Of a stretch of 32,000 nucleotides of DNA, positions 3 through 16,912 are shown piece by piece (within the stretch, counting starts at the first letter, position 1; every line of letters begins with the position of its first letter). The notes beneath the pieces were generated by a model that saw nothing but the letters and a program-made list of their open reading frames with translations, was not told the DNA's origin and ran no database searches. The stretch comes from an uncultured archaeon (lineage in GTDB: Archaea > Asgardarchaeota > Thorarchaeia > Thorarchaeales > Thorarchaeaceae). The position numbers and the translations under genes were made by a program. The stretch is taken from the NCBI GenBank assembly GCA_964354495.1, contig CAYHAA010000001.1, forward strand, positions 646,936 to 678,935, written 5' to 3'.

Positions 3-335
3 ACCCTTGCAATGCTCCCCTCGACTGAGGACGTTAAGTCGCTCTTATGGCTCTTGAGGCACGCTGTTTCAATTGAAACTGGGATGTCACTCGACGACGG
101 ATTTGACAATTTGATCAGCTATCTTGTGACCACTGATATGTCGATAGAGGACTTGGCGCAGCAGTTTGAATTAAGCATTGGCGATGTCTGTGGCTTGCTG
201 GACACTTCTAGGTGGCTTCTGCACGCCATTTCTGTTTTAGCTGAATTGGGATGCCTTGAGAAGGCCACTGAGATAGCTCAGGGTCTTCGTGAGGCATTGG
301 ATCGACGACTGATAAACAATGTAGAGGAGGACTAA
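3..335 (+). CDS. C-terminal end of a Hel308/Ski2-like SF2 helicase paralogue (partial; runs off the left edge)
   Basis: The frame is open to the window edge. SIEDLAQQFELSIGDVCGLLDTSRWLLHAISVLAE...L.RRL.NNVEED resembles the Hel308 domain-4 ratchet region (f.v.pGDl......a.WLl.a...la ... Rl.yGv.eE). The ORF stops where the HhH domain 5 would begin. Confidence 0.6.
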   Translation, partial: TLAMLPSTEDVKSLLWLLRHAVSIETGMSLDDGFDNLISYLVTTDMSIEDLAQQFELSIGDVCGLLDTSRWLLHAISVLAELGCLEKATEIAQGLREALDRRLINNVEED

Positions 336-340
336 CAATT

Positions 341-2029
341 TTGGATACTCATCTGATTGACGCGAATGAGATTGATGAAGAAATAACGGAAAAAGGATCG
401 ACCGTGAGTCCAAGTGAAGCTGACGTATCAGAAACCTTGAAACTCACCGGTCATATCACAACAGACTATCCAAATGGATTGACACTAGGGGTCAAGCTCG
501 AATCTGTTCCAGGAACTCGAGGCGTGCACGCCGACGTTGTATATGCCTTGGATTTGCGACGAGCTACATTTGGAAAGGGCGGACTTGCCATCCGAGCTGC
601 AGTGCTAGAGACCATAAGTCGAGACCTCGACAAGGTCCTAAATGATGTTGGACTGGGCGAACTTCTTCGTGAACGTGCAGTCCTGACTCCATGGGGTCAC
701 ATGCGATTGCCGTTGTTGCAGGGTGCGTCGCATGGGTCTCTGTCCCTGATGCATGAAACTCGGACCGTGTATGTCATCGTTGAGAACGCAAAGCCTACGT
801 TTGACCTCACCTGGCTTACAGAGGCCGGCAGAATTGTAGCTGCTGACCAGTTCGCTCTTATCAGTCAGAGTGATTCTCGGTCGAAGCTCTCAGATCTGAG
901 GAAGAGCGTTGGGGGCGAAAAGTGGCAGCTTCTTGAAATGGGCTTGACAAAGGGATGGTTCGGTGTCCTTGCCCTGCTCTCGTTCATGATAGGTCTGTCG
1001 ACATCATTCACTATACTCTTGGCAGGTTCGAGTTCGCTCATCATACCCGTACTAGTAAGTCTCGCATCTGGTGTTGTGAGCGGGTGGCTGCTACGCTCGT
1101 CGAGAACCTGCGTTTCAGCGTTTCAGGAAACACTGGCCAAGGAACGTGAGCGTCTTTGTGAGTTGGGCGACACAACTCGAATAACGCGCTCTATTGCGGA
1201 AAACGAGGACAGGCTTCAACTCATTGCTGATCTCAACTTCATAGTTTCGCCTCTTATGGCAGCTGTGGGTACGGCCATCAGCAACGGTGACGTTGATGCA
1301 ACAGTCAGTGTTGCCTGTTCTATTCTTGATGAATGTGTCAGATTGGCTCCCAGACCCTCTGAGTCATCTCCTGTGATTCGTGGAGACGATGGCTTGCGCC
1401 ATTTCATAGGGTTATTCGAGTATCTAGGAGGAAACATCGAGGAGGCGAGTCTTGCACTCGCATATGTTGGCCTCACAGGACACCTGACTAAACGAATAAC
1501 ATTAGGTGAAGCAGTTGCACACCTGACGCAGCTGAACAACGCCCTTTATGACATTGGTGCACTCAGACCCAATATCAAAGAAGCTTTGGACGACCACCTT
1601 AACATGATAGGTTTCAAAGAGACGGTGGATGAGATAGATAAGGAGATTAGGAGTGCAGAGGAGCCCACCCCTGCGTCAAGGGCAAAAACTGATGAAGAGG
1701 GCGTTCGCGACGAGCTGCAACCGGAAGAAGCAGCGCATCTGAAGCGTTTCGACAGCCTCACTGAGGATGACGAACTTCATGATCAGATTCGACAAGCCTC
1801 TGTAGAGGTATCTCCAGATGATGAACCAGTTGCTTTGGTTGATTCTGGTACTAAGATATCTGACTCGACTGAGGAAGTGACCATTGTCGCTACTGACATT
1901 ATTGCTGGGAGGATGAAGAAACAGAAGAGTGAACCTGCCGAACCAGCACAGCTTCTCCTAATTGAGGACTTTGAGTGTATGAAATCAAGCAGTGAAGCAA
2001 AAGAGGAGCGTGGATCTGCTGGCGTCTAG
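341..2029 (+). CDS. Hypothetical membrane protein (2 predicted TM helices, helical middle, acidic C-terminal region)
   Basis: 562-aa ORF with a TTG start after GGAGG. Hydrophobic hairpin GWFGVLALLSFMIGLSTSFTILLAG...LIIPVLVSLASGVVSGWLL. No family recognised. Confidence 0.8.
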   Translation: MDTHLIDANEIDEEITEKGSTVSPSEADVSETLKLTGHITTDYPNGLTLGVKLESVPGTRGVHADVVYALDLRRATFGKGGLAIRAAVLETISRDLDKVLNDVGLGELLRERAVLTPWGHMRLPLLQGASHGSLSLMHETRTVYVIVENAKPTFDLTWLTEAGRIVAADQFALISQSDSRSKLSDLRKSVGGEKWQLLEMGLTKGWFGVLALLSFMIGLSTSFTILLAGSSSLIIPVLVSLASGVVSGWLLRSSRTCVSAFQETLAKERERLCELGDTTRITRSIAENEDRLQLIADLNFIVSPLMAAVGTAISNGDVDATVSVACSILDECVRLAPRPSESSPVIRGDDGLRHFIGLFEYLGGNIEEASLALAYVGLTGHLTKRITLGEAVAHLTQLNNALYDIGALRPNIKEALDDHLNMIGFKETVDEIDKEIRSAEEPTPASRAKTDEEGVRDELQPEEAAHLKRFDSLTEDDELHDQIRQASVEVSPDDEPVALVDSGTKISDSTEEVTIVATDIIAGRMKKQKSEPAEPAQLLLIEDFECMKSSSEAKEERGSAGV

Positions 2030-2705
2030 TGGACCGTTGATGGACGCGCTCGGTCTTAGAGGCCTGATTCACCTGTGGGGAGATGCAGGGTCGGGCAAGA
2101 CACTTTTCGCTGTTGCGCTTGCCTGCGATGTTTCAAGGAATCATCGTGTTGAATGGATCAATACCGATGCGAAGAGGAGTTTCATTTCTCATCTCAAGAA
2201 GAATGCTGTTGCATCAGGTGGCAAAACGGAGAATATTGCAGTCACATTCACGGAGGACCATACAGAGCTATGTACGCTCATCGAAGGACTACCGAGTGCG
2301 ATTGCTGATGTTTCTCTGGTTATTATTGATCCGATCACACGAGTCCTTGACCTGGCTCGGCATAATCCAGTCTTGTGGGGTCGTGAGATCATCGAGGACG
2401 TGTTACCGACACTGACAGGTATTGTGACTCAAAACAACATCGATATCATCATCACTAGCGAAAGCCGCATGATGCAGGACTCAACTAATCATGCAGTCCA
2501 TCACAACTCGATATCAAGATGGGCTGACCATGATCTCTGCATGACCCGCAGCACAGACAAGCCCTATTCGCAGGTATCAAGATTTTCAGAGGATGGAATG
2601 AAGGAACTTGCTTCGATGCGGATAGACAATCGAGGAGTGATTGAAGTCGTACCACAGATGGTTCTGCCGACTGCATCAAGAGGGGTGAACGAACTTGTTT
2701 GGTAA
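1992..2705 (+). CDS. RecA/RadA-superfamily ATPase, RadB/aRadC-like paralogue
   Basis: Walker A GDAGSGKT, WINTD strand, Walker B LVIIDPIT and IIITSE strand. No N-terminal HhH domain. An alternative start exists at ATG 2040. Confidence 0.8.
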   Translation: MKQKRSVDLLASSGPLMDALGLRGLIHLWGDAGSGKTLFAVALACDVSRNHRVEWINTDAKRSFISHLKKNAVASGGKTENIAVTFTEDHTELCTLIEGLPSAIADVSLVIIDPITRVLDLARHNPVLWGREIIEDVLPTLTGIVTQNNIDIIITSESRMMQDSTNHAVHHNSISRWADHDLCMTRSTDKPYSQVSRFSEDGMKELASMRIDNRGVIEVVPQMVLPTASRGVNELVW

Positions 2706-3663
2706 TGTTCTGACGAAGATGATTGTGCTAGTCGTGGGTGGAGCGATAGTTCTCGCTACCGGAGCTGAGTTACTAGCATCGGTGGTTTCCGTGGTACTAG
2801 CGTTTCGATTTGGTAACTTCGTACCGCTTCTCGCTGTAGCTGTGTTGACAATTGTCATACAGATAGTTACCAATCATGCTTCCCATGATTCTCGAGGTTT
2901 CATCGTCATTAAGACGCTAGCGTATGCCATCACTGGCTACCTTGCTTTGACTGTCTTCCTGATAGCTTTTCCCTACGGTCTGATTATATCTATTCTGACA
3001 AGTGGAGCGGTGTGTGTGTTATCATCGGCATTTCGTAAACAGAAGCTAGGCATATACTGGACGAAAGTCAAACAGTCACTCAGTCACTCACAGAACGGAC
3101 TTCACGGACTGGCCAATAGGCAAGTCCCTGTGGGCGATGGGACTTCCTTCAAGCTGAATTCGTTCCATACCATAGTGATTCTGGAGGAAGGCGTCAGAGA
3201 GAAGATTGTTCAATTGCTACGAGAACGTCCGCTCTTGCCAGTTTCGTTCACACACTACGAAGACTGTGATGTCATATTCATCGCTGATGAAAACGATCCT
3301 GTACGATATGAACATGTCATGAAGCTTCTGAAGGACTCGAGTATCGGAGTAAAGGGCCCTGCGTCACCATTGCTTGCAGAGGCTGTGCAGATGGTTCCTA
3401 TACTTGATTCTCGGAATGGCCTGAAGTTCGAGGACTACCGGCTTGCTCGTGATGAGAAGACAATCTGCAGCTTGCTTGCTCAGGCGCCATCGCGTCTGAC
3501 GGTCTTTCCTTCACCCCTCGGGCTTGGCGTACTAATTCCCGCCATGGAGGCTCTAGGAATGAATGTAGAACGCCTCAAACGAGGATGTGAAGCTGATATC
3601 CTACTAAATCGAGAACACTCGCATCTTGAGGAGGTCGAAGAACCTATTGAGGGCACCGCTTGA
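2695..3663 (+). CDS. Hypothetical membrane protein (about 4 N-terminal TM helices, soluble C-terminal domain)
   Basis: 322-aa ORF with a TTG start after GGGGTGA. The first ~115 aa are strongly hydrophobic. Overlaps both neighbouring genes. Confidence 0.8.
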   Translation: MFGNVLTKMIVLVVGGAIVLATGAELLASVVSVVLAFRFGNFVPLLAVAVLTIVIQIVTNHASHDSRGFIVIKTLAYAITGYLALTVFLIAFPYGLIISILTSGAVCVLSSAFRKQKLGIYWTKVKQSLSHSQNGLHGLANRQVPVGDGTSFKLNSFHTIVILEEGVREKIVQLLRERPLLPVSFTHYEDCDVIFIADENDPVRYEHVMKLLKDSSIGVKGPASPLLAEAVQMVPILDSRNGLKFEDYRLARDEKTICSLLAQAPSRLTVFPSPLGLGVLIPAMEALGMNVERLKRGCEADILLNREHSHLEEVEEPIEGTA

Positions 3664-4363
3664 GTCACTTGAAGCAACAACCGAACCATTGTTTCGAATA
3701 CATCCTAGAATATTGAATGATAGTATAGGGAAGCTGTTTCTTCCTCAGCAGATTAGTCTCTTTCACGGACGAGAACGTGCGCCGCTCAGCATACTCGCTC
3801 ACGCAATGGGAGTCTCGGCAGCCAGGATTGAAAACGCAAGCTGTGCTTTCTTGGATTCAGGTACGAACTATATTCCAGCTCTGGTTCGAACACTCTGCGA
3901 CTCAAAGAAAGAGTCGACAGAACTCCTGAAGAGAATCGTAGTTGGGCAGGTCTTCGGATTGGATGATGTTATTGAGAAAGTTCAGCTGCTCCATGATATG
4001 GGCAACATTTCTCTGATCGTTCTCGATAGTATTACTGGCGCCCTAAACCTATCAGGAGCTCCAGGCTGCATTGGTCGCCAGAGAACTCTCTTTGGCACTT
4101 TGGATGTCATTCGACGAGCAAACAATGACCTGAATTCCCACGTAATGATTACTGACCACTCGTCGCAAAACTGGATATCTGGGGCGCCGACTCCCATCGG
4201 CGGGAATGTCCTGTCACATGCTGTAGACAGCGTTGTGCTCGTCGATAGACTGCGCCAAGGCGAGGAACTCGTCCGTATCCTGATTGAACGAAGCCCATCT
4301 CCATCAGCAGCTCCTGGCGTCATAGTCATGGCTGGACCGAAGGGAATCCGGAGTATCAGGTGA
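3626..4363 (+). CDS. RecA/Rad51-fold paralogue with degenerate Walker A (probably an inactive ATPase)
   Basis: Retains AFLDSG, Walker B LIVLDSIT, VMITDH and the RadA-type PIGGNVLSHAVD motif. The P-loop position reads HGRERAPLS (no GKT/S). Start codon uncertain. Confidence 0.75.
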   Translation: MRRSKNLLRAPLESLEATTEPLFRIHPRILNDSIGKLFLPQQISLFHGRERAPLSILAHAMGVSAARIENASCAFLDSGTNYIPALVRTLCDSKKESTELLKRIVVGQVFGLDDVIEKVQLLHDMGNISLIVLDSITGALNLSGAPGCIGRQRTLFGTLDVIRRANNDLNSHVMITDHSSQNWISGAPTPIGGNVLSHAVDSVVLVDRLRQGEELVRILIERSPSPSAAPGVIVMAGPKGIRSIR

Positions 4364-4368
4364 ATTCA

Positions 4369-5364
4369 ATGGGCGTGAAGAATTGGGGCGATGATGTCAT
4401 TCCGTGGAAATGGACGTCAGCATCCTTAATCGCTCCTGGAGCAATCGCTATAGATGTTCCAAACTATCTCACTCGAAGACTTGTCGTGATGCGTGAGAAG
4501 AGGGAGCGAGAAGGAAGGTTACCCTTGAATCATGTTGGAATGTTTCTCAGCCTCCTCAAAGTTGCATTAGGTGCTCACGTTCTTCCCGTCTTCATCTTCG
4601 ATGGTCCCCCAGAATCACGAAAACGCAGCCCGAATCCTGGACTAGTGGAGAAGGCTTCAACTCTCTACAAGAGATTCCAACAGGAGCGGGACCCCTTCAA
4701 CGAAGAAATGTCTGCTGAGCTTCGGAGAAGTCCTGCGCTCAGAGCATACTTTGCTGCCGCGCATTTGAAAGACCTCGGAAGTATCGTGGGCGTTCCAACG
4801 CTTACAGCACCTTCTGAGGCAGAGATGTTTGCAGCTGTTCTCTGTAGGGACGGTGCCGTAAAGACAGTTGTGTCAAATGATGCAGATGCTCTTCTCTTTG
4901 GGAGTCCTCATGTCACGAAACAGATACAGCTCTCATCGAATCGCATTCTCTCCGTTGCATTGAATGATTTTGAGAAGCATCTTGGCCTCGACATCGAGCT
5001 CCTCCGAGATCTTGCAGTCGTTTCAGGATGTGATTTTCATAAGAAGGGTGTTAGGGGTATTGGAGTGAAACGTGGAACGGTCCTTCTTCGCCGATATGGA
5101 GGTCTCGAAGGATTGCTCAAGGCTCACGGCTACTCCCATGCAGAGCGGAGTGAGTTCATCGAGGCGAGGGAAGTGTTTGATGAGGCTTCCTATATGTCTG
5201 CCAAGGATCTGTATCTGACTCTGAACCCTCCGCTTGTGTCCAAATTTGTTGGAGCTCTTGAGATTATCATGTCCTCGAAACATGCAGAAACAATCGCAAG
5301 CAGGATAGTTACCCTATGGCGCGGCTTTGACAACAGGCAGTCAACATTGGAGCAATGGCTCTAG
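4369..5364 (+). CDS. fen1: Flap endonuclease 1 / XPG-Rad2 family nuclease, divergent paralogue with C-terminal PIP box
   Basis: MGVK N-terminus, AID, PVFIFDGPP..K, APSEAE, SNDADALLFG, GCDF, GVRGIGVKRG (H3TH) and the C-terminal PCNA-binding motif RQSTLEQWL. Confidence 0.88.
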   Translation: MGVKNWGDDVIPWKWTSASLIAPGAIAIDVPNYLTRRLVVMREKREREGRLPLNHVGMFLSLLKVALGAHVLPVFIFDGPPESRKRSPNPGLVEKASTLYKRFQQERDPFNEEMSAELRRSPALRAYFAAAHLKDLGSIVGVPTLTAPSEAEMFAAVLCRDGAVKTVVSNDADALLFGSPHVTKQIQLSSNRILSVALNDFEKHLGLDIELLRDLAVVSGCDFHKKGVRGIGVKRGTVLLRRYGGLEGLLKAHGYSHAERSEFIEAREVFDEASYMSAKDLYLTLNPPLVSKFVGALEIIMSSKHAETIASRIVTLWRGFDNRQSTLEQWL

Positions 5365-7406
5365 AATCTCCTCTGTGCTGACCAGATGTCTTTCCATCTC
5401 TGGCTATCCCTGTTTCTTATCTGATGAAGGACTGACATTCTATATGTCTGCGATGACTTGAGTCGTGCGGTGAAGGAGCGATCAGATGCTTCCTCCATAA
5501 TGTCACGCAGTATTCCGGCAACATGATCATTCTTCTTCGCGGGTACCTGTATGTGCGCAACTACGTCATTCGAGTTTCCGACCAACAATCTGACGAAGGG
5601 AAGTCGTCCGGTCATATCATCGATGAGAGAGTCTCTTGACCTTCTATCGTAGCAGTTTGCCACCGCCATCAGTCCATCAGGAAGCCCACAGAATTCTAAT
5701 GCCGGGAAGTAGACTCGATTCAGCACATGGTCACTTATCATCTGATGAAGCAATCTATTTGCTGTCCGAATCGGGAAATCTACCTGGTCAAACAACCATT
5801 TCCTCTGCGTTTTGGAACCCTCGAATCTCCATAGAATACTGAGAAGCTCCGTCTGCCTCTCTGTCAACGAAAACGGTTTGCTATCTATATGCAATGTGGA
5901 GTATTGAACGGTTCTCTTCTTATTCTTCTTCTTGGGTGAATCAATGTCTCCAATATTCTCAAGATTCCACTTTCCAGTTTGCACATTGAAGTAGTCCAAA
6001 TTCATCGATATGATTTCATCCTCAACGACTGCTTCATGCGATCCTCTAGGTAGAGAAATGACCTCAGGTCCGTTGGTCAGGAACGGTTCAATATATACAG
6101 CGCAGCCACGGATTTTCTGCTCGGTCAAAATCATTCTCTCGACAAGTCCGTCATTGAGTATCTCTGACCTCTGAAGAGGCGTGAATATGTACCTATAACG
6201 AAGTCCAAGTTTTCGAAGCGATGGAATATAACGCTCGTGCAGTAGGTGTTCAAGCTTCTGTAGTGCATAGTAAGCTGTGCGCCCTCTGAACTGAGATACT
6301 TGCTCAAGATCCTTGGCGTTTAGGCTTCTGGAGATATTCCGTTTAGCAAGATTCATGCAAAGCCCTGTAAGAGGAGCGTATTTCAGCAAGTTGATCTCTC
6401 GACGGAATAGTTGCAGGAGCTTCTCATATTCGTTCGCTGCTGGTCCATCAGGTCTGAGCGCCAGGACATCCAAACGAGTAGCTGATACAGAACGAACATC
6501 GATTTCTTCTTGGAGATGACCGCTAAATCCCTTCAGCATCGCCAGCTCATCAGAGATTTCTCTCCTGAGAGATGTCCTCAGTTTTTTGCTGTCAGAGTCT
6601 CTGGATTCAATTCTCCGATACCAGTCACTTATCTTTCTAGAGAGAGGATTTGGTTGTGCTATAGAGACATCCAGTTTCGGATCTTGACCAAGGGCTTCAT
6701 TGATCAGCTCATCAGCTTGTTTCAATCTTGTAGCGAGGTCATCCCAAGAAAACTTGCCAGAATAGACACTTAGTGCACGGTCGAGGACTTCTATCTTGAC
6801 CTCTTCCATCATATAGGACCATAGACTGTATAGCCATGGGACGCTCTGGTCAACAATCCGTGAGATGAAGTAGACGCTTAGAATTGCGGCTGACAAGGAA
6901 TCCAAGCCCGGCATCACTGCTGACCAATCTGCTGCACTCGGAACATGCTCTGTGACAATCCTGCTGAGAGCATAAGAGAAAGAGTTAGCCTCTTCTGACT
7001 CCTCTTTCTCCTCTGCCACTTCCGCACCTGTTCCCTCTTCTGTTTCCTCTTCTCCCATCTCTTCTTTAGCCTGTTTTCCAAAGCTCTTGGGCAACAGTGA
7101 TTTGACTTGTTCTCTGAGGGTTCCTCCTGTGGGCTTGAGTGGCCTCATTCGAGTTGTTATCTCATCCATAACCTTTTCATAATTGAGAGGCTTGTTGAGT
7201 GACGCTGGCGTAACTGCGGTATCAGGAAGAGGCGACAGATGAAAGGTCTTCTCGAAAAGCGTTTCATCTAATCTGCCTGAGTCTGTTTTCCAAGAGGATG
7301 AGTCCATGATTATGTGCCTAAGTATATTCAGATCAGAAGTCCGCCTGCTTCTTTTCATCCACTCCAAGTAGCTCTGCTTTTTCTCAGTCAAGCTTGCATA
7401 CATCAT
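5361..7406 (-). CDS. Large hypothetical protein with tandem C-terminal wHTH + Lrp/AsnC-like modules; putative transcriptional regulator
   Basis: 681-aa ORF. HTH-like SLNAKDLEQVSQFRGRTAYYALQKL followed by PSLRKLGL; a second HTH-like LTERQTELLSILW...TANRLLHQM followed by YFP...GL and LP...VP. The stop codon overlaps the fen1 stop in CTAG. The domain call is by pattern only. Confidence 0.55.
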   Translation of the reverse strand: MMYASLTEKKQSYLEWMKRSRRTSDLNILRHIIMDSSSWKTDSGRLDETLFEKTFHLSPLPDTAVTPASLNKPLNYEKVMDEITTRMRPLKPTGGTLREQVKSLLPKSFGKQAKEEMGEEETEEGTGAEVAEEKEESEEANSFSYALSRIVTEHVPSAADWSAVMPGLDSLSAAILSVYFISRIVDQSVPWLYSLWSYMMEEVKIEVLDRALSVYSGKFSWDDLATRLKQADELINEALGQDPKLDVSIAQPNPLSRKISDWYRRIESRDSDSKKLRTSLRREISDELAMLKGFSGHLQEEIDVRSVSATRLDVLALRPDGPAANEYEKLLQLFRREINLLKYAPLTGLCMNLAKRNISRSLNAKDLEQVSQFRGRTAYYALQKLEHLLHERYIPSLRKLGLRYRYIFTPLQRSEILNDGLVERMILTEQKIRGCAVYIEPFLTNGPEVISLPRGSHEAVVEDEIISMNLDYFNVQTGKWNLENIGDIDSPKKKNKKRTVQYSTLHIDSKPFSLTERQTELLSILWRFEGSKTQRKWLFDQVDFPIRTANRLLHQMISDHVLNRVYFPALEFCGLPDGLMAVANCYDRRSRDSLIDDMTGRLPFVRLLVGNSNDVVAHIQVPAKKNDHVAGILRDIMEEASDRSFTARLKSSQTYRMSVLHQIRNRDSQRWKDIWSAQRRF

Positions 7407-8226: not shown

Positions 8227-8310
8227 GCACCTTGTTACAACGTGAGAGAATGATGTACAGCACGTTGGATACGCATGGCCGATTGCTCGTCGAGCAGAGG
8301 AGGAATTGCT

Positions 8311-8904
8311 TTGCAGACTGATCTTCTTACACTGATGACCGCAAACCTACTCTTCTCTGTAAAGATTACTCCATTGGTGGTAGTGATTGCCACCCTAATT
8401 CGTTCCCTTCTTCTCTTCTCAGGGAACAAGAGAGCTTTCAAGTCTTGGACTAGAAATGCTCTCCTATCAGCTATTACCATCGTGTTTCTTCCGGGCAGCA
8501 TTGTGAACACTGCAGTTCGTTATGTAGTCTGTTCGCTTTTCAGAATTGACTTGAACGGCGTTGGCGCAGGAAGCACATATGCTGAGCTCAACCTCTTTCT
8601 GAAAGTGGATTCTCCTCCACGTGTGGCTGTTCTCGTTTCTGCCCTCTATGTCAGCACAGTTGCATCCATCTTCATTGGGTTCTCACTACTTGTTCTTCCA
8701 GTGGTCTTCGTTGCCGGTGCTCCTCTGCAGCTGCTTTGTTGGTACTTGGCACTCGGAGTGCTTTTCAACAGCTCACTTCGCGGAGGCGATGTGTCCCTGC
8801 TCGGAGCCGCGCTGCATGGTCACCCTGGAAAAGGCATTGCTGAGTTCATTATTGCTGTCATTGTCCTCGCAGTCTTCTACTCATTTGTGGGGGTCGGAGT
8901 ATGA
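8311..8904 (+). CDS. Polytopic membrane protein resembling membrane zinc metallopeptidases but lacking HExxH
   Basis: 4-5 hydrophobic segments. FLPGSIVNTAVRYVVCSLF matches the 'PG..vHE..H...c...' pattern with NTAVR in place of HExxH. TTG at 8311 follows GGAGG at 7 nt; the ORF track starts it at 8275. Confidence 0.55.
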   Translation: MQTDLLTLMTANLLFSVKITPLVVVIATLIRSLLLFSGNKRAFKSWTRNALLSAITIVFLPGSIVNTAVRYVVCSLFRIDLNGVGAGSTYAELNLFLKVDSPPRVAVLVSALYVSTVASIFIGFSLLVLPVVFVAGAPLQLLCWYLALGVLFNSSLRGGDVSLLGAALHGHPGKGIAEFIIAVIVLAVFYSFVGVGV

Positions 8905-9086
8905 GTCTTGTACAAGACAACCAATCAATCATGTCCCGGGTCGATCCGTTCCCCGACGAACCACACCGTTTTCTACCATGCTGGACCTGCAGCTTGATGC
9001 AATTCCTGATCCGTCTTTTCCTAGAAGATCGACCCGTTGGACACCCTCTCATCAGCTTAGAAGAATCGGGAGTGGATATCCTGTGA
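8901..9086 (+). CDS. Small 61-aa protein with a CxxC motif, translationally coupled on both sides
   Basis: The start overlaps the upstream stop (ATGA, 8901-8904) and its stop overlaps the downstream start (TGATG, 9084-9088). Contains CWTC. Confidence 0.55.
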   Translation: MSLVQDNQSIMSRVDPFPDEPHRFLPCWTCSLMQFLIRLFLEDRPVGHPLISLEESGVDIL

Positions 9087-12000
9087 TGAAACAAGCCCTC
9101 ATCTGCACCTTATTTGTATGCACCATTCTGTTTGCTATTCCGATGACTGCAGTCATAGCTCCAATCGGCGATACAGCAGAAGAGCAGTTTAATGTCGAAG
9201 AAACTGACTTGAGCGCTGCTGACGCTGGCATCACACGTCCCAGCAATCCTTACATTGTCCTAGAACTCACTTCAGGTGATGTGCCTGCCCGAGGAGATGC
9301 ATGGTCTCAGCTGTTGAGTTCCAAAGGAATCCCGAACGTACTACTGAGAACTGAAGATGTTCTATTGAATTCCTCGGTGATATCGGACACGCCTGCGATT
9401 CTTCTTGACGGAAGCCTTGGATCCTACAGCGGAAATCTTGTTTCGCAGTCTCTGATTGATTTGCTCATCCGCCTAGATACATCTCTGATACTTACTGGAC
9501 GTTCGGCCTGGTTATTGCACAGATACTCGGGCCGAGGTTCACCCTCTCTGACCGCTCCAGCTGAGACGAAGCTACTCGGCTCGTCAACGTACTCTGGAGC
9601 GGTCTTCCTCTCACAGCCTGAATCTCTTACTGTTGGCCTGCCTCTGACGTCTGAGAATGGTCTAGTGTTCCCAGTCGATGAAGCTCAAACTGAGATGTCA
9701 CTACTCGTGAATCTCACTCGGAGCACAGACTCCTCGACTATAGCTCCTCTCAGACATGATTCTTGGCCGCTAGATGTCTTCCTGTTCGCACCTGAGAATC
9801 CTGGTTTCCTGACATCGACTGGAGAGGGGCTTCTCGTGAACGTCATCGCATTCTGTACTGCGATACGTGAGTCTTCTACTGCATCTATTCTATCAGGGTT
9901 TCAAACCACGCAGAGTGCTCTTCTTGCAGGAGGAATGAGGTACATGCATGAACCCACGATTTCGTCTACGTATTTTGCAGTGCATACGATGGAGTCCCTC
10001 CTAGTGGGTTCCTCGTGGGAGAACTGGGTGTTGACAAACGCACCTCTGGTTCAAGACATACTCACGAGTCTTCTTGTAGACTATGGCTCAGAAGCAGGCT
10101 TTATGACATCGCAGACAGATACTGTTGTCGACTGCAGAAGCACTGCTCAGGGCCTCTGGCTTGTAAGTGAAATGAGTCTTACTGTTTCTTTCCCTGTTAC
10201 TGAGATTGTTGCATACCTAAGTGCCCGACAGAGTTCTGATGGAGGATTCGAGAATTATGTTACCACAACCTTTCACGTCACCGAATCACTTTGGGCTTCA
10301 GGGTGGCTTTCCAGCATCGATTCAAACCAGCTGGAGATTTGGTTAAGGTCTCTGGTCATTGATGGCGCAAAGACCTCCAATCCTGATCTCTGGGGTGCAA
10401 TAGGTTCGAATCCCACTAGTACCTCACCGTTGAGCAACTATGCAACAGAGTATCTGAGGTCTCTGTTCTTCCTCGGAAGAGCTCACGCAGACCCGTCAAA
10501 GTTGACAAGCTGGATTCTGACTAGAACCTCAAATGGCGACGGCTCATTCAGGAACTCAATAGGTCTTGATGAGGAGGTCGTCACTGGTACGGCTTCGGCC
10601 TTGACAAGCATGCAGATACTCGGTACTCTGAATGGGCTGAACAGGACCTCTGGGCTAAGCTGGCTCACTGATAATCAACTTGCATCAGGTGGTTTCGGTT
10701 TGAAGACTGCCACATCTGACCTTGTTGGCAAGACGCGCGAAACCTCTCGAGTGGCAGCCTGTCTTAAGATGCTCGGAGAAACCTCAGGACCTCTTGTGAC
10801 TGGAGCCGTAGCTTATGTCTATTCAATCACTACTGATGTTGGGTTCGAGCCTATGGACCCACTGCCATCGCTTATGTGGACAAGCTGGCTTCTCGAGACG
10901 GGTAGGCTGATACATGCTTCCCAGAGCGTCGACCTTGACCTCGCCCGAAACTACATCTCCTGTTATGACGGACCATCTACGCTCACTGTCTATCCGTTCT
11001 GGGAGAATCTCACTACCATGAGCTCACCTGAGTATGGCATGAACCAGTATAGAACAAAGAGTGTCTGGATACAGTACTTTGGAGTTTCTGCAGCTCGTTC
11101 TCTTGGCATAGAACCTGCGCCGAGTGTTGCTTCAGACATCGTCCTCTATCTCTCCCAGACTCAATACGCCACTGGACATTACCGACCAACGCCGCTCACA
11201 GGCACAGCTCACATGCAGCACTCAGTGGCTGCTGTAGAAACTCTCTATATCTTAAATGAGCTTGACACAATCCTCTATAGAGAGGCCTTGGAAACAGCCA
11301 TTCTCTCGATGTATAGCGCTGGTTCGTGGAATACTGCTGGGTGGACTCTCAAACCATTCGCTGGCTCTCAACACGCCATCGACTATCTGTCGACATGTGC
11401 TGCCATTCGATTGGGAATCGTTACTCCTGCCATGGCCGCTGAGATAGCAGCCTGCATAGACGCTCGTCTACAGTACTCTGATCTCTTGGCATTGAGCTGG
11501 GATGTTGCTACGTTGTCTCTCTTGCAGACTTCAGCCTTCTCCGCAGGGCTTGAGTCCGTGGACACATCACTTGTGCTTGATGCCCTGAAGTCATCTCATT
11601 TTGTTGATGGATGGTTCAATGCAACCAGACTCTGGCAACCTGTCTTGACAATGAGTGTGCTCAAGATGGTGTCCATTCTGGGGCTTCGATGTCTTCTTGA
11701 TGACATTCCTGGTTCTTCATTCACTGCTAGCGCCAGTCCGACAGCAGAACTTGGGACTGTGCTTGATATCTCCATAAGTATAGCCTCCTCGTCAGAAACT
11801 CACTCTGTCATAGTCAGAGCACTCGACATATCACTATTGTTCAATAATGTAGGAAACAACGACACGCTGCAGCTACCGATACCTGCAAACAGAGAATGTC
11901 TTGGTCCCTGGAGCATTTCGTTGATGATTTCCGATTGGGGCTCTTCTCGTGCCTTTGGTGCATTAGAGATTGTCCTCGAAGGAACGTTACAGGGTTCTGC

Positions 12001-15000
12001 AGCGTTGACGACTCCAGCTGTGAAAATGGGCGCATTCATAAACGGAACTATTCTGTGGACACTCTCAAACGGCTTAGACGCTGGTCCTGCTCATACAACA
12101 ATTCGCCTAGGCAATCCACCAACGTATCGCCAATGGAGCTATGATACACCTTCCCCCTTCGTATTCTCAGTGCCCACTTCCGACTTTGATGCTGGTATCT
12201 ATTCGCTCACGGTCACGGTGGAGGTGCCATACTGTGTATCCCTCATACTCAGCGAAGAGGTAGTGATTGCAGAGCCGAATCCAACCTACATGAGCGCTCC
12301 GACAAGCTCTGATGGTCAGGTGGGCAACGAACTCCGCATAGAATGGTCATTACATTGCGTTGAGGACAACACCCTGATTGGAAGCCAGGCGGTGAGCTTG
12401 GTCATCAGAGACAATGCTAATTCAATTGTATTCACTGATGCGCTGATTTCCAGTACCAGCGGCAATGTGTTTCTCTGGATTCCAGAAGTGAGGGGCGACT
12501 TTACGTTCCAGCTGCTCTTTGATGGGAATGGCACTTTGGATAGTAGCCAAGTGGAAGGGAGTATTCGTGTCTATGAGGAAACCGTTCTTTCTTGGATGGG
12601 TGGAGGCACGATGAATCAGTATTCAACTGTGAACCTCTCAGTCCTTCTGCAGACCTCGCAAGGAGCGGCTCTCAGTGGGCAGGCAATACAAGTACTCGTC
12701 CAAGCTCCTTCGTCAGTCACTGTTATAGATAGTTGGTGTGTCACGAATTCAACAGGATATGCTACGATTCTGTTTTCATTATCACAGAATGGTGTCTATC
12801 TGCTCCAGGCTCAATACCCTGCAAGCAGTTTTCTCCAAGGCTCTAGTGCCTCAGAATCTCTGACCTCATGGTCATCAAGCTCTCTAGTACTGGGTGGAAT
12901 CGAATCTGAGGTGACGATTGGTGGTACTTTTCAGCTACGGGCACAGCTTGATGATCTTGTACTGAATCCTGTGCCTGGACAGCCCGTTCTTCTGCGAATA
13001 ACGTTCCTGCCATCCACAGTCCTTGTGGAGCAGACACTCACGTCGGACTCGGGTGGCTACGTGTTTGTTGAATGGACAGCAGGCTCAGCAGGTACCTATA
13101 GATTTGAGGCGATCTATAGTGGAACGATATCGAGAGCCTCCTCTACCGAGAACATTGATTTTCAAGTTCTCATTCCTGTTGCACTCACTCTCACTACTGC
13201 CACATCATCTGAGACAGGCTCTGAAGAATCAATACTCGTAGTGACAGTTGATCATCTTGGTAATCCTATCTCCGGCATCTCTATCTCATTGATTGTGCGT
13301 GGGCCCGGAGGCACAACTCTGTACACGAATCAGTCCTCCACAACGGGTGGCTCTGTCACATTTCTGTGGGCACCATCCCAGAGAGGAGTGAATGAAATCA
13401 CCGTGGTTTCGGCGCGACAGACTTGGTATCACGAAGCATCATCTTCAGTCACGGTGAATGTGTACGAGACTCCTGCTATTGATGTTGAGATTCCGTTGGA
13501 TGCCATTGCACCAACAAGTGATACAATCGAGATTTTCATCTTCGACCATGAGAGTCAACCAGTGCAAGGAGTCACTATTCGAGTTCAGATTAAGCTGAAT
13601 GCAACGACAATAGTCGATGGCAATTTCGTGACAGATGGCAACGGGCTTGTCAGTATCACAGTGAATCTTGACATTCCAGGTTTCCTTCAAGCCGAGACTA
13701 CGCTCTTGCCTCAGGGATGGTTCCTCGAGGCTACTGCAAGTTCGAACAGTGTAGTATCGTCTGCCACAACTCTCCTGATCATAATCCCTGGCCAACCCGT
13801 GCAACAAAGCTCGACAGTTGGAATATCATTTTCTCTTAGCGACTTCTCAGGTGCTCCCTTGGCCGCATCAATGATTCAGATTGAAATTGCCTGGGGTAAC
13901 GGAACAGTCATTCGGTCTGTTACTCGTGTGACTGATAGCACAGGCCATTGTGCTCTTGCACAAACCTTCAATTCTGTCGGAGACTTTGTCATTCGTGGTT
14001 CATACAGTGGCTATGGCTCAAACTCTTCTGCTACTCATGCTGTTGCACAGCGTGTGTTCGTCACGCCATTGATTGATGTAGCTCATGAACCAAGCTGCAT
14101 TTCTGGAGAAGCCATGGAGTTCATTGTCAATCTCACCGATGCCCTTGGCAACAACATCATGGGAAGGACAGTGCAACTGAGCATTGAACAGGGAGGATCA
14201 ATTGTCTTCGAGGCCCAGTTTCTGTCGGGCGCGGGTCCATCAACAATCACTTGGTATCCGACTCAGGGAGGTATTGCTACAATCACAGTAGTCCATCTTG
14301 GGAATATGTACTACCTCACAACATCGATGGACACAGCAGTATCCATCATGGAACTCGTCAGCGGCTCTATCGTTCTATTGCCATGTGAGATTGACATATT
14401 CGATTCAGCAGTTCTTGTTTACATTCTCGAAACCGCTATTCCGAGAAGCGGCGTTATAATCCGTTTTGAAGTACTTGGAATGGACTTGGTTCCTGTGTGG
14501 ACAGCTGATCGTCTGACAAACGCTTCAGGTATGGCATCAGTTATCTACACCGCGACAGAAACGCATGGAGTCCTTCACGTGAATGCAGGCCCTATCGCTG
14601 ATGAGTTCCTGATTGGCGGCGACGTCCGAGAGCAACTCATTGTCAAGACGTTCTGCAACATCACAGCATCTCTGCAGCCAACACCGCCGCGCGTGAACAC
14701 TCTCACTAATATCACAGTTCATGTAATAGACGACCTGGGCGGAACTATCGACGGTCCAACAGTCACTGTAAGTCTGTACAATCCCTACGGAGAGATTGTG
14801 AAGCTAGGCCTCTGGACTAATTCTGAAACAGTCCCTATTGAGAACGGCTTGGCTGTTGTGGACTTCGTACCCACAATGGCAGGTCTATATACTGTAGTTT
14901 CGAGCTCGTCAGGTTCAACCACAGTTCATGGATTCAGCGGTACGACTCAACACACGGTCTATTCTGTGACCCAGCTCGTGCTGATTGCATCTGCATACGA

Positions 15001-16912
15001 GCTCGAGGTGGGACAGACACTAGATGTTATGGCAAGACTTCTTGATCACAATAGTATGCCGCTTGTGGGGAGAAACATTACCCTATACCTTGATGGTCTA
15101 GGTACTGGTTCCTTAGGTCCCATTGTACCGGCTACGAACTCGACTGGTTATGTGTCGTGGAGTGTCACGATTGATGATGAAGGAGTCTGGGTTTTGACTG
15201 CGTCTTTCGGTGGGTTGGGTGTGTATCTTCCTGCAAGCACTGATGCTGCGATCAATGTCAGATACGGGACGGTGATTAGCCTCTCGCTCGAGACCTCTGG
15301 CGATATTGTTGCAGGCGAAACAATAGCATCGTTTTCCATCCTGTTGGCAGATTCAGGAGGAACGCCACTTGAGGGCTTCACGGTTCATTATGAGGTCCAT
15401 GAAGAGAATCTTGGGCTTGTTGTCCAAGGGAGCATAATTCAGACTGACACTGATGTGATTATTCTGAATCTTACCATCGAGCAAATGGGCATCTATGCAA
15501 TCCTTGTTTCCTTCAGTGGAACGAATCACTATCACGCATCAAACGCCGGGATTCAGTTCCTGGTTCTCGGCACTACCAATGCTGTATCACCAATTTCAGA
15601 GCGCATCGATAGATCAACGGAGAATGCAACTCGGATTGTGATAGAGGATGAGGTTTCCGTGCCGATTCCTCCGGCCGAACTTGATGTCACAATTGAGCTC
15701 CATGGTCCGGATGGACTGGTTGACCTCTCAGGTCGCCTTGTGTGGAATGAGTCTTGGGTGGACTTCTACATCTATGGACTCCCTACCGGCGATTATGTCC
15801 TCGGCGTCACCGTGCTAGCAGCAGACATGCGCCAAGGATGCAGCGCTCAATTCGATTTTGCCATCACTAGTACTGCGTGTCTCGCTGTTTCTGAAGAAAC
15901 CCTCCCTGGACTGATTTCTAAACCTCATTCTCTAACTTTCGTCTTGATGGACTCTTTGGAGGAGGTTGTGGACGCAGTTGATGTCTGGGTGAGTCTGTAT
16001 GATCCACTCGGCCGTGAGATCTATGGGCATCCACTTTCGACGCGAACACTGCTTCATTCCTCTCTCATGGGAACTGAGGTCTCTTGGACTCCGACTCTTA
16101 TTGGTGAGTATCGCCTCGTTCTTGTCTTCGAGGGTGATGACTTCTTCGATGCAACATCGCTAGAGGTCATTGTTCTGGTACTTCATGAGAGCTCGATAAC
16201 TCTGGCTGCACCATCCCAGTCCGAATTCGGCGAGATGATACCTGTATCCTTAACACTGCAGGGCGCCCTCGGAGGTATCTCAGGAGTCACAGTCATACTG
16301 ACAGTGTCAATGGAGGGAGAAATCGAACAGCAGCTATCTCTTGTCACAGGAAGTCGTGGCATCGTAAGCACCAATCTTGTAGGTCTCTTGGCAGGGTCTC
16401 ATGCTATCGTAGTGGCATTCTCGGGCTCTGCCACGCAGGCTTCGTGCATAGGAAATATGACTGTAGTCGTTGTTCCTGTTTTTGTGATTGCGCTTGATTC
16501 AAGGGGTGACCTCTTTGTGGGACACAACTGTAGTGTTGATGTTTCGGTGAGCATCCTTGGGCTGTCCTCTGCCTGGAATGGATCTCTTGAAGCTGTTCTC
16601 TTCGACACCGCTCGCTCTAGGGTCGACACATGGAATATTGAGATAGGTCCATACTCGCTCTTTGTCATCGATTTCCTGCCTCTCGCTGAAGGCGCCTATT
16701 CGCTGAATGTCACCATCACAGGCTTGCCTATCATTGCAGAGAGGGTTCTTCCGATGGCGATTGCGATAGTGCGCGAGACACTAACACTGCAGTTGGATCC
16801 ACAGACCACACCAATGTTTGGCGGGCTAGGCATCCTCGCTATTGTGGGGTTGGTCATTAGGAAGAAAATGAAGAGCATGCTCGAGTCGATGCCAGGAGAA
16901 TGGAGAGAATAA
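9086..16912 (+). CDS. Giant cell-surface protein (~2608 aa): signal peptide, prenyltransferase/squalene-cyclase-type alpha/alpha repeats, many Ig-like repeats, C-terminal TM anchor
   Basis: ATG 9086 follows GGGAGTGG and opens the signal peptide MKQALICTLFVCTILFAIPMTAVIA. QW-like repeats: LSARQSSDGGF, WILTRTSNGDGSF, WLTDNQLASGGFG, YLSQTQYATGHY. At least 11 Ig-type 'L.D..G.P..G..V' motifs and at least 25 NxS/T sequons. C-terminal FGGLGILAIVGLVI-RKKMK. Confidence 0.85.
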   Translation: MKQALICTLFVCTILFAIPMTAVIAPIGDTAEEQFNVEETDLSAADAGITRPSNPYIVLELTSGDVPARGDAWSQLLSSKGIPNVLLRTEDVLLNSSVISDTPAILLDGSLGSYSGNLVSQSLIDLLIRLDTSLILTGRSAWLLHRYSGRGSPSLTAPAETKLLGSSTYSGAVFLSQPESLTVGLPLTSENGLVFPVDEAQTEMSLLVNLTRSTDSSTIAPLRHDSWPLDVFLFAPENPGFLTSTGEGLLVNVIAFCTAIRESSTASILSGFQTTQSALLAGGMRYMHEPTISSTYFAVHTMESLLVGSSWENWVLTNAPLVQDILTSLLVDYGSEAGFMTSQTDTVVDCRSTAQGLWLVSEMSLTVSFPVTEIVAYLSARQSSDGGFENYVTTTFHVTESLWASGWLSSIDSNQLEIWLRSLVIDGAKTSNPDLWGAIGSNPTSTSPLSNYATEYLRSLFFLGRAHADPSKLTSWILTRTSNGDGSFRNSIGLDEEVVTGTASALTSMQILGTLNGLNRTSGLSWLTDNQLASGGFGLKTATSDLVGKTRETSRVAACLKMLGETSGPLVTGAVAYVYSITTDVGFEPMDPLPSLMWTSWLLETGRLIHASQSVDLDLARNYISCYDGPSTLTVYPFWENLTTMSSPEYGMNQYRTKSVWIQYFGVSAARSLGIEPAPSVASDIVLYLSQTQYATGHYRPTPLTGTAHMQHSVAAVETLYILNELDTILYREALETAILSMYSAGSWNTAGWTLKPFAGSQHAIDYLSTCAAIRLGIVTPAMAAEIAACIDARLQYSDLLALSWDVATLSLLQTSAFSAGLESVDTSLVLDALKSSHFVDGWFNATRLWQPVLTMSVLKMVSILGLRCLLDDIPGSSFTASASPTAELGTVLDISISIASSSETHSVIVRALDISLLFNNVGNNDTLQLPIPANRECLGPWSISLMISDWGSSRAFGALEIVLEGTLQGSAALTTPAVKMGAFINGTILWTLSNGLDAGPAHTTIRLGNPPTYRQWSYDTPSPFVFSVPTSDFDAGIYSLTVTVEVPYCVSLILSEEVVIAEPNPTYMSAPTSSDGQVGNELRIEWSLHCVEDNTLIGSQAVSLVIRDNANSIVFTDALISSTSGNVFLWIPEVRGDFTFQLLFDGNGTLDSSQVEGSIRVYEETVLSWMGGGTMNQYSTVNLSVLLQTSQGAALSGQAIQVLVQAPSSVTVIDSWCVTNSTGYATILFSLSQNGVYLLQAQYPASSFLQGSSASESLTSWSSSSLVLGGIESEVTIGGTFQLRAQLDDLVLNPVPGQPVLLRITFLPSTVLVEQTLTSDSGGYVFVEWTAGSAGTYRFEAIYSGTISRASSTENIDFQVLIPVALTLTTATSSETGSEESILVVTVDHLGNPISGISISLIVRGPGGTTLYTNQSSTTGGSVTFLWAPSQRGVNEITVVSARQTWYHEASSSVTVNVYETPAIDVEIPLDAIAPTSDTIEIFIFDHESQPVQGVTIRVQIKLNATTIVDGNFVTDGNGLVSITVNLDIPGFLQAETTLLPQGWFLEATASSNSVVSSATTLLIIIPGQPVQQSSTVGISFSLSDFSGAPLAASMIQIEIAWGNGTVIRSVTRVTDSTGHCALAQTFNSVGDFVIRGSYSGYGSNSSATHAVAQRVFVTPLIDVAHEPSCISGEAMEFIVNLTDALGNNIMGRTVQLSIEQGGSIVFEAQFLSGAGPSTITWYPTQGGIATITVVHLGNMYYLTTSMDTAVSIMELVSGSIVLLPCEIDIFDSAVLVYILETAIPRSGVIIRFEVLGMDLVPVWTADRLTNASGMASVIYTATETHGVLHVNAGPIADEFLIGGDVREQLIVKTFCNITASLQPTPPRVNTLTNITVHVIDDLGGTIDGPTVTVSLYNPYGEIVKLGLWTNSETVPIENGLAVVDFVPTMAGLYTVVSSSSGSTTVHGFSGTTQHTVYSVTQLVLIASAYELEVGQTLDVMARLLDHNSMPLVGRNITLYLDGLGTGSLGPIVPATNSTGYVSWSVTIDDEGVWVLTASFGGLGVYLPASTDAAINVRYGTVISLSLETSGDIVAGETIASFSILLADSGGTPLEGFTVHYEVHEENLGLVVQGSIIQTDTDVIILNLTIEQMGIYAILVSFSGTNHYHASNAGIQFLVLGTTNAVSPISERIDRSTENATRIVIEDEVSVPIPPAELDVTIELHGPDGLVDLSGRLVWNESWVDFYIYGLPTGDYVLGVTVLAADMRQGCSAQFDFAITSTACLAVSEETLPGLISKPHSLTFVLMDSLEEVVDAVDVWVSLYDPLGREIYGHPLSTRTLLHSSLMGTEVSWTPTLIGEYRLVLVFEGDDFFDATSLEVIVLVLHESSITLAAPSQSEFGEMIPVSLTLQGALGGISGVTVILTVSMEGEIEQQLSLVTGSRGIVSTNLVGLLAGSHAIVVAFSGSATQASCIGNMTVVVVPVFVIALDSRGDLFVGHNCSVDVSVSILGLSSAWNGSLEAVLFDTARSRVDTWNIEIGPYSLFVIDFLPLAEGAYSLNVTITGLPIIAERVLPMAIAIVRETLTLQLDPQTTPMFGGLGILAIVGLVIRKKMKSMLESMPGEWRE

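Follow-up and report, generated by a model that had tools for sequence, protein, structure and literature searches.

A 32,000-nucleotide stretch of a Thorarchaeota genome (G000:C1:646936-678935 of a 3.3-Mb assembly, 98% complete; hereafter, the window) begins within an operon of 15 genes and ~16 kb, in which genes for homologous-recombination enzymes are interleaved with genes for membrane proteins. As judged from its motifs, the encoded toolkit comprises a motif-intact RadA2, two helicases, a 5'-flap nuclease with a PCNA-type tail, and two further RadA paralogues, one with an intact ATP site and one without a P-loop. We propose that these proteins form a second, dedicated homologous-recombination toolkit, which is assembled at the cytoplasmic face of the membrane and works as an accessory machine, a reading to which we assign a probability of roughly 45%.

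Gene order is conserved across the family, and the operon can be lost

Genes were called from the listing of open reading frames combined with Pfam and NCBIfam family scans. The operon starts 10.6 kb to the left of the window, and its upstream part was read from 15 kb left of the window (L001 coordinates). A first-pass annotation, made from the window, had described six tightly packed, co-oriented genes between positions 3 and 5364. These correspond to genes 10 to 15 of the operon and are present as described, with every junction being a small gap or overlap (+5, -38 [or +10], -11, -38, and -4 [or +5] nucleotides [nt], in gene order). The six genes are indeed one co-oriented, conserved unit, but they are only the distal third of the 15 genes rather than the whole operon. 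Gene 15 likely starts at the ATG at position 4369, and the TTG start of gene 13, which encodes the 322-residue membrane protein TM322, is supported because all orthologues begin with MFG, MLG, MIG, MFS, or similar residues.

The expectation that the gene order would hold among relatives was borne out across the genera of the family and, largely, in one genome of the sister family. Of 14 loci from 13 genera, 11 keep all 15 genes in identical order and orientation, with 23 to 72% amino-acid identity; the remaining three are truncated by a contig end or by gaps in the scaffold. The G242 locus, without genes 1 to 9, is uninformative, since its scaffold holds runs of N. Clustering of the 15 genes is far above chance. 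Within the operon, conservation is highest for the enzymes and lowest for the membrane proteins. TM562, the 562-residue membrane protein encoded by gene 11, was detected in 53 of 76 sampled genomes of its own family, once per genome barring split or fragmentary matches, and in 0 of 224 sampled genomes of other Asgard families.

The only sister-family genome sampled, G108, carries one co-directional array with junctions of 0 to 25 nt. This array starts with RadA2 through the Hel308-like helicase, followed by a remote TM562 homologue (hhalign, 94%); it continues with a 196-amino-acid (aa) polytopic membrane protein and a surface protein of ~2,600 aa and ends with a RecA-like protein (226 aa), a transmembrane (TM) protein whose N terminus resembles that of TM322, a Rad51-like protein (223 aa), and a FEN1-like protein (305 aa). 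Since the RecA-like/TM/RecA-like/FEN1-like module is kept in G108, the distal four-gene module predates the family. A looser cluster was observed in G038, from a distant Asgard family (L029, G038:C1:2527500-2547000), where a RadA2-like gene lies with genes for an 888-aa M28-peptidase-like protein, two uncharacterized proteins, and a divergently placed Hel308-like helicase.

The operon is present in 31 of the 37 family genomes that are at least 90% complete, and the other 6 have no match to gene 9 or TM562. Five of the genomes negative for these two genes were also searched for gene 14, and only canonical RadA was found. A clean loss of genes 3 to 15 is seen in G251, a member of the same genus, where the site (L043, G251:C97, 6286-9455) reads GH3, gene 1, gene 2, and the convergent downstream gene, with ~84 nt from gene 2 to the end of the convergent gene and the flanks retained. 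The deletion therefore indicates that the system is not needed for viability and that genes 1 and 2 may not belong to it. The flanks conserved around the operon are the upstream GH3 gene and the convergent downstream gene and, more widely, two TFB genes, the CysRS gene, and transporter and sugar-hydrolase genes. Overall, the operon is vertically inherited, chromosomal, non-mobile, and dispensable.

The operon enzymes are divergent second copies

The first-pass annotation regarded each enzyme as a divergent second copy rather than the housekeeping gene, and whole-genome family searches agree, with better-scoring copies found elsewhere in the genome. The separate canonical radA, fen1, and hel308 genes are all present. 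The RadA copy elsewhere scores 304 bits against 178 to 179 bits for RadA2, the Hel308 copy 835 bits against 325 bits for gene 10, and the XPD copy (DEAD_2) 99 bits against 66 bits for gene 6; the FEN1 copy, on contig C20, scores 424 bits, above the cut-off, against 102 bits for gene 15.

Despite these lower scores, the catalytic motifs of the operon copies are kept. RadA2 has intact GPARGGKT, LDTES, and GGH motifs. In the Hel308-like gene 10, Walker A (SPTGSGKT) and motif II (DEIQ) are intact, and a SWIM-like CxC-x12-CxH motif lies in the part of the gene upstream of the window. The XPD-like gene 6 shows GIGKT and DEAH, plus at least four cysteines at the place where XPD has its Fe-S cluster. 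This helicase also matches the PADLOC model of the type IV-A CRISPR-associated DinG, at 248 bits and over nearly its full length, which is probably a generic XPD/DinG family match.

When gene 15 was aligned to canonical FEN1, each of the seven acidic residues of the active site (D, D, E, E, D, D, D) was found to be kept, also in the orthologue rows displayed. It nevertheless misses the fen_arch (TIGR03674) equivalog cut-off (102 versus 352 bits). Assignment to GEN1, EXO1, or XPG was considered and rejected, as the PDB matches that score highest are to FEN1 of archaea and humans (87 to 76 bits) and the others reach at most 46 bits. The C terminus, QSTLEQWL, fits the PIP pattern Qxx[LIM]xx[FWY][FWYLI], and canonical FEN1 ends in QSSLSDFF; a tail of the form Q[ST]TLEQW[L/V/I], or more broadly of the Q[ST][ST][LM][ED]Qx type in the displayed gene 15 orthologues, is conserved, suggesting a putative, PIP-like PCNA-interacting motif.

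One of two short RadA paralogues has lost its P-loop

In addition to RadA2, the operon encodes two short RadA-derived proteins, which the first-pass annotation had read as one RecA fold with an intact ATP site and one with a dead Walker A motif. Both assignments stood. The Walker A motif of gene 12 is GDAGSGKT, and G..G.GK[TS] with an invariant lysine, together with an invariant Walker B aspartate, is found in 15 of 15 sequences. In gene 14, GRERAPLS stands where the P-loop is expected; the P-loop lysine is missing in 14 of 14 orthologues, in which no GK[ST] occurs and residues of the HG[PR]ERAPL[ST] type take its place. The Walker B aspartate and a GGN motif are kept (14 sequences).

Gene 14 matches the Rad51 family at 24.8 bits (cut-off, 22), beginning at model position 31. 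Gene 12 has no N-terminal helix-hairpin-helix (HhH) domain, and gene 14, unlike RadA2, gave no HHH_5 match, so that an N-terminal HhH domain or polymerization motif was not found in it. Both paralogues score below the equivalog cut-offs for RadB and RadA, gene 12 scoring 29 bits and gene 14 scoring 33 bits against 172 bits for RadB (TIGR02237). A PDB sequence search with gene 12 returned no match. Profile comparison by hhalign relates RadA2 to gene 14 with 98.8% probability (E, 8e-17; 203 columns), both paralogues to RadA2 at 97 to 99%, and gene 12 to gene 14 at 94%.

TM562 and TM322 are orphan membrane proteins

The products of genes 11 and 13 had been taken for real membrane proteins, and both their hydrophobic segments and AlphaFold2 models built on alignments of 37 to 46 sequences support this. 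The TM562 model has a predicted local distance difference test score (pLDDT) of 76, which is about 90 over most folded parts. It predicts a beta-rich N-terminal domain (residues 26 to 167), followed by a helical hairpin of 35 and 42 residues whose hydrophobic tip (209 to 251) would provide the two TM helices, an acidic helical bundle (278 to 439), and an acidic disordered tail (440 to 562). The median net charge is -15 for the C-terminal domain and -18 for the tail, which argues for protein docking over DNA binding. Within this very acidic tail, residues 516 to 529 (window 1886-1927) read [TV]G[AP][DE][IV]V..R..KK+ and are followed by a basic patch. The motif is semi-conserved, with the strict pattern G[AP][DE][IV]V..R..KK found in 20 of 46 TM562 homologues, and it may be a docking peptide.

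The TM322 model (pLDDT, 86) predicts four TM helices (residues 2 to 115), a variable disordered linker, and an alpha/beta domain at 143 to 311 (block pLDDT mostly 88 to 97). In both proteins, the TM segments are bordered by basic residues on the side that faces the domains, and the loops outside have few residues, such as AGSSS and PYG. Because of these flanking residues and tiny loops, the folded domains should be cytoplasmic. With so little exposed outside the cell, the two proteins look more like anchors or scaffolds than like a pore or receptor.

Homologues of TM322 and TM562 found by profile searches of a 5.8-billion-protein word index were all unannotated Thorarchaeota-type proteins from metagenome-assembled genomes (MAGs). 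An exhaustive search of 1.84 billion representatives with TM562 gave 63 matches, one of them weak, and none outside the order; viral contigs gave no match. By sequence, TM562 and TM322 are therefore orphans confined to Thorarchaeota. Fold searches with the products of 341-2029 and 2695-3663, which the first-pass annotation had called for, were run with whole-chain models against PDB Foldseek, AFDB clusters, VIA-align wide, and the ESM Atlas, and no meaningful match was found in any library. AFDB gave one strong, unnamed match for each membrane-protein model, which we took to be a close homologue. The remaining matches of TM322 (ESX EccE-like, VAO-type cap, VirB4 N-domain, and ACT/NIL-like folds) were rejected as noise (Z, at most 7.8), and those of TM562 as generic helical hairpins (Z, at most 10.5, for the whole-chain model). 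Language-model Atlas look-ups gave no usable match for either soluble domain.

The upstream part encodes a weakly HerA-like membrane protein

The absence of a HerA/VirB4 ATPase reported in the first-pass annotation is true of the window, but the operon outside it contains the weakly HerA-like gene 9. Its profile gave five PDB matches, of which four are HerA-type chains, at E-values of 0.1 to 0.4, and the fifth is a receptor fusion; there is no Pfam match. Instead of GxxGxGK[ST], all 13 orthologues compared have CGGxxxxR at the P-loop position, and their Walker B is degenerate. From its sequence, a HerA-like pseudo-ATPase is a plausible but weakly supported assignment. A role as a translocation motor is unlikely because the P-loop is degenerate. 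Remote gene 9 homologues of about 540 aa were seen in several Asgard families, and the homologue in G038 has 520 aa with a winged helix.

Gene 9 was the one HerA/VirB4-related candidate among the genes to the left of the window, which were inspected for PolB2, HerA/VirB4, and pilins as had been suggested. Pfam detected no polymerase (PolB2 or ImuB type) and no pilin in any gene of the locus; the analogy that had been drawn to ImuA and PolB2 cassettes thus has no local support. No pilin or secretin was seen in 50 kb, and nine further uncharacterized proteins of the locus had no match in Pfam, NCBIfam, or PADLOC. The four operon membrane proteins (genes 7, 9, 11, and 13) are unrelated to each other by hhalign. 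An all-against-all hhalign comparison found relations only within the RecA family, and the ideas that the membrane proteins are mutual paralogues or that the operon is an internal duplication were discarded.

Downstream neighbors include a giant surface protein

As seen in Table 1, the genes that follow the operon include those for a polytopic membrane protein and for a giant surface protein. In 10 of 11 genera of the family, these two genes lie just downstream and are co-oriented with the operon. In G108 (L028 1-5978, L031 4591-7098), they lie inside the operon, with overlaps of 4 and 25 nt with their neighbors, and the surface protein homologue shows Ig-like repeats (Pfam). Joint loss of the operon and the surface protein in G251 was considered and rejected, as the surface unit persists there on another contig.

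The 681-aa and 657-aa proteins bracket the surface-protein unit; orthologues occur in most genera, and both are in place in G251. Farther downstream lie two tandem TFB (TFIIB) paralogues, which are 85 to 91% identical to their counterparts in relatives and adjoin the GH3 gene in G251. In Sulfolobales, one TFB paralogue controls the Ups/Ced DNA-damage response. A leucine-rich-repeat protein is encoded beyond them.

Table 1. Genes of the operon and of the downstream region (positions refer to the window unless L001 is given)
Feature	Size (aa)	Position	Strand	Features noted
Gene 1, uncharacterized	287	left of window	+	
Gene 2, uncharacterized	155	left of window	+	
Gene 3, RadA2	363	left of window	+	Rad51 match and HHH_5
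Gene 4, uncharacterized	152	left of window	+	Cys4 ribbon
Gene 5, uncharacterized	206	left of window	+	
Gene 6, XPD-like helicase	680	L001 7781-9823	+	
Gene 7, 2-TM protein	201	left of window	+	no family match
Gene 8, uncharacterized	102	left of window	+	
Gene 9, weakly HerA-like	786	1.9 kb left of window	+	2 TM helices
Gene 10, Hel308-like helicase, full	730	L001 13079-15271	+	DEAD, Helicase_C, ResIII
Gene 10, C-terminal part	110 of 730	3-335	+	Pfam Helicase_dom4_arc, below cut-off here
Gene 11, TM562	562	341-2029	+	no family; two hydrophobic helices at 209-251
Gene 12, RadB/KaiC-like RadA paralogue	237	1992 (GTG) or 2040 (ATG) to 2705	+	AAA_25/KaiC/RadB-like matches
Gene 13, TM322	322	2695-3663	+	no family; residues 2-115 hold four TM helices
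Gene 14, P-loop-less RadA-derived putative pseudo-ATPase	245	3626-4363	+	Pfam Rad51, 24.8 bits
Gene 15, FEN1 paralogue	334	4360 (GTG) or 4369 (ATG, MGV...) to 5364	+	XPG_I 63 bits, fen_arch 102 bits
Convergent downstream gene	681	5361-7406	-	no known family; adjoins gene 15 in most genera; retained in G251
Polytopic membrane protein	209	8275-8904	+	no family match in Pfam, NCBIfam, or PADLOC; homologue inside operon in G108
Giant surface protein		9086-16912	+	signal peptide, prenyltransferase-type alpha/alpha toroid (Pfam)
Protein of no known family	657	16915-18888	-	
TFB paralogue		19547-20527	-	
TFB paralogue		20615-21574	-	
Leucine-rich-repeat protein	550	22102-23754	-	LRR_8, LRR_4, BspA-type LRR_5

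A model for membrane-docked accessory recombination

In the machine that we propose, the products of genes 12 and 14 would pair up as a mediator of RadA2, nucleating or capping its filaments much as Rad55-Rad57, Shu, and BCDX2 serve Rad51. TM322, whose gene lies between those of the paralogues, and the acidic TM562 would tether this pair and the helicase to the membrane as anchors or scaffolds. Joint molecules may be opened or remodeled by the helicases, and the FEN1 paralogue, recruited by PCNA, would trim the 5' flaps that arise from strand invasion and repair synthesis. All this would take place beside the canonical RadA/FEN1/Hel308/XPD set, with the membrane-attached chromosome, broken ends, and incoming DNA as candidate substrates. 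HELQ has been reported to bind the RAD51-paralogue complex BCDX2 (PMC13623763), a precedent for cooperation between a helicase and RecA-family paralogues.

The closest parallels to these components are the Rad51-paralogue mediators with HELQ (BCDX2, Rad55-Rad57, and Shu/SWS1-SWSAP1) and archaeal RadB/aRadC, which share with the operon short RecA-core paralogues without the N-terminal domain beside a recombinase. One ATP site kept and one lost and a helicase of the Hel308/HELQ type, which in the operon carries a SWIM-like CxC..CxH motif, are further common points. However, the operon differs from these systems in that it encodes all parts together and interleaves the paralogues with membrane proteins. 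A further difference lies in the low RadB scores of genes 12 and 14; the likeness to eukaryotic paralogues noted here is one of features. The archaeal HerA-NurA-Mre11-Rad50 operon is likewise devoted to homologous recombination and combines a HerA-type protein with a nuclease. Here, in contrast, RadA paralogues, Hel308, XPD, and FEN1 replace Mre11, Rad50, and NurA, the HerA-like member is membrane anchored and probably inactive, and four membrane proteins are present.

Several points weigh against the proposed machine. The scaffold role is argued from topology and gene order, with no recognizable fold or motif behind it, and the binding of soluble proteins to TM562 and TM322 is something that we infer. 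The high E-values of the gene 9 matches leave its HerA-like assignment uncertain. In archaea, membership in one operon does not prove a physical complex. Finally, G251 lacks genes 3 to 15 while keeping genes 1 and 2 and the flanks.

The machine could also have a more specific form, which we regard as quite unlikely, in which it serves DNA exchange. DNA arriving at the envelope, perhaps entering through contacts with the surface and polytopic proteins, would be passed by membrane-tethered helicases to the dedicated recombinase and its eukaryote-like mediators, namely the active and the dead Rad51-type paralogue and the SWIM-bearing HELQ-type helicase, and the FEN1 paralogue would finish the products.

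Alternative explanations

The alternative that survives best, although we consider it unlikely, is a DNA import or cell-to-cell exchange apparatus resembling Ced/Ted or competence systems, an idea raised for DNA import in the first-pass annotation, in which the four to five membrane proteins would be the conduit, the helicases would pull DNA, RadA2 and the mediators would integrate it, and the FEN1 paralogue would trim flaps. Bacterial competence, with the ComFA helicase, the DprA mediator, and RecA at ComEC, follows a like logic of helicase, mediator, and recombinase at the membrane. Apart from the RecA superfamily, however, none of its parts has a homologue here, and the operon has no ComEC-like channel. 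Ced and Ted of Thermoproteota (CedA, CedA1, CedA2, and CedB; TedA to TedC) come nearer, since they too link small 2-TM and membrane-anchored HerA/VirB4-superfamily-like proteins to recombination genes. Ced combines two 2-TM proteins with one polytopic and one membrane-anchored HerA/VirB4-type protein, a set that genes 7, 9, 11, and 13 with the 209-aa polytopic protein crudely parallel, and Ted loci adjoin HerA and Rad50 genes (PMC9905601).

The position of the polytopic protein gene, near the operon and inside it in one lineage, adds to this likeness, as does that of the surface protein gene, which accompanies it within the G108 operon and downstream on the same strand in 10 of 11 genera of the family. 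By topology, the 209-aa protein would be a candidate for a VirB6-like channel and gene 7 (2 TM, 201 aa) for a VirB2-like pilin, although neither has a family match. Against an import apparatus stand the lack of detectable homology to CedA, CedA1, or CedB and of any relation, by sequence or by profile, to VirB4, VirB6, or VirB2, as well as the absence of a pilin or secretin within 50 kb. With its degenerate P-loop and Walker B, gene 9 does not show the active NTPase motifs of CedB/TedB and is not an obvious motor. Only a few residues of TM562 and TM322 would reach the cell exterior. The recombination enzymes lie inside the operon here but beside the Ced/Ted loci, and G251, which kept the surface-protein unit but lost the operon, shows that the two are separable.

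A system for defense against viruses or plasmids, with helicases, a nuclease, a HerA-like sensor, and membrane effectors, would account for the patchy distribution (6 of 37 genomes negative and a clean deletion in a congener) and for accessory proteins that are lineage specific and fast evolving. The gene 9 profile matches in the PDB are, bar one receptor fusion, of HerA type, and some of these chains come from bacterial defense systems. Among the helicases, PADLOC models for DinG (248 bits) and HamB (137 bits) were matched. These helicase matches are generic, however, with no HamA, Cas, or other system-specific partner, and the 11 uncharacterized proteins gave 0 matches in PADLOC-DB 2.0. The operon is also single copy, at one fixed chromosomal site with housekeeping flanks in 13 genera, while TM562 is confined to one order (1.84 billion representatives) and absent from viral contigs. 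Moreover, a toolkit made up of a full recombinase, its two mediators, and a flap nuclease linked to PCNA is one for repair and not for abortive infection. Given a fixed site, confinement to one order, no system-specific PADLOC match, and a toolkit of the repair type, we hold defense to be very unlikely.

That there is no common machine, and that the membrane genes are passengers of unrelated function which historical accident has fixed in a repair operon, would agree with the lack of an assigned family for either membrane protein, with an interaction with the enzymes that is presumed, and with the fact that descent alone can conserve gene order in close MAGs, but it is hardly probable, given that the interleaved order, in which stop and start codons overlap, is maintained at 23 to 45% protein identity, that the RecA-like/TM/RecA-like/FEN1-like genes stay together through insertion or rearrangement in the sister family, and that membrane and enzyme genes were lost together in G251.

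Implications for recombination in Asgard archaea

A full-text literature search found no description of this Thorarchaeota operon. A 2025 preprint reports RadA duplications in Asgard archaea of the Heimdall, Njord, Gerd, and Loki types, with Thorarchaeota and gene context unmentioned. Among prokaryotes, no closer relatives of eukaryotes are known than the Asgard archaea, and the origin of dedicated recombination pathways (Rad51 versus Dmc1, Rad51 paralogues, and HELQ) is an open question. In the operon described here, an entire lineage maintains a complete second set of recombination enzymes, its genes interleaved with those of membrane proteins that lack relatives elsewhere. Several orphan families, two of them with confident predicted folds, are gained for structural work. 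If the proteins form one machine, as we propose, it would be a new way to localize homologous recombination in a prokaryote, and its ~15 proteins would be a tractable set for reconstitution. If the DNA-exchange form of that machine were true, archaea of the group closest to eukaryotes would have a previously unknown route for exchanging genes, and a specialized, non-housekeeping recombination pathway would have a precedent among prokaryotes.

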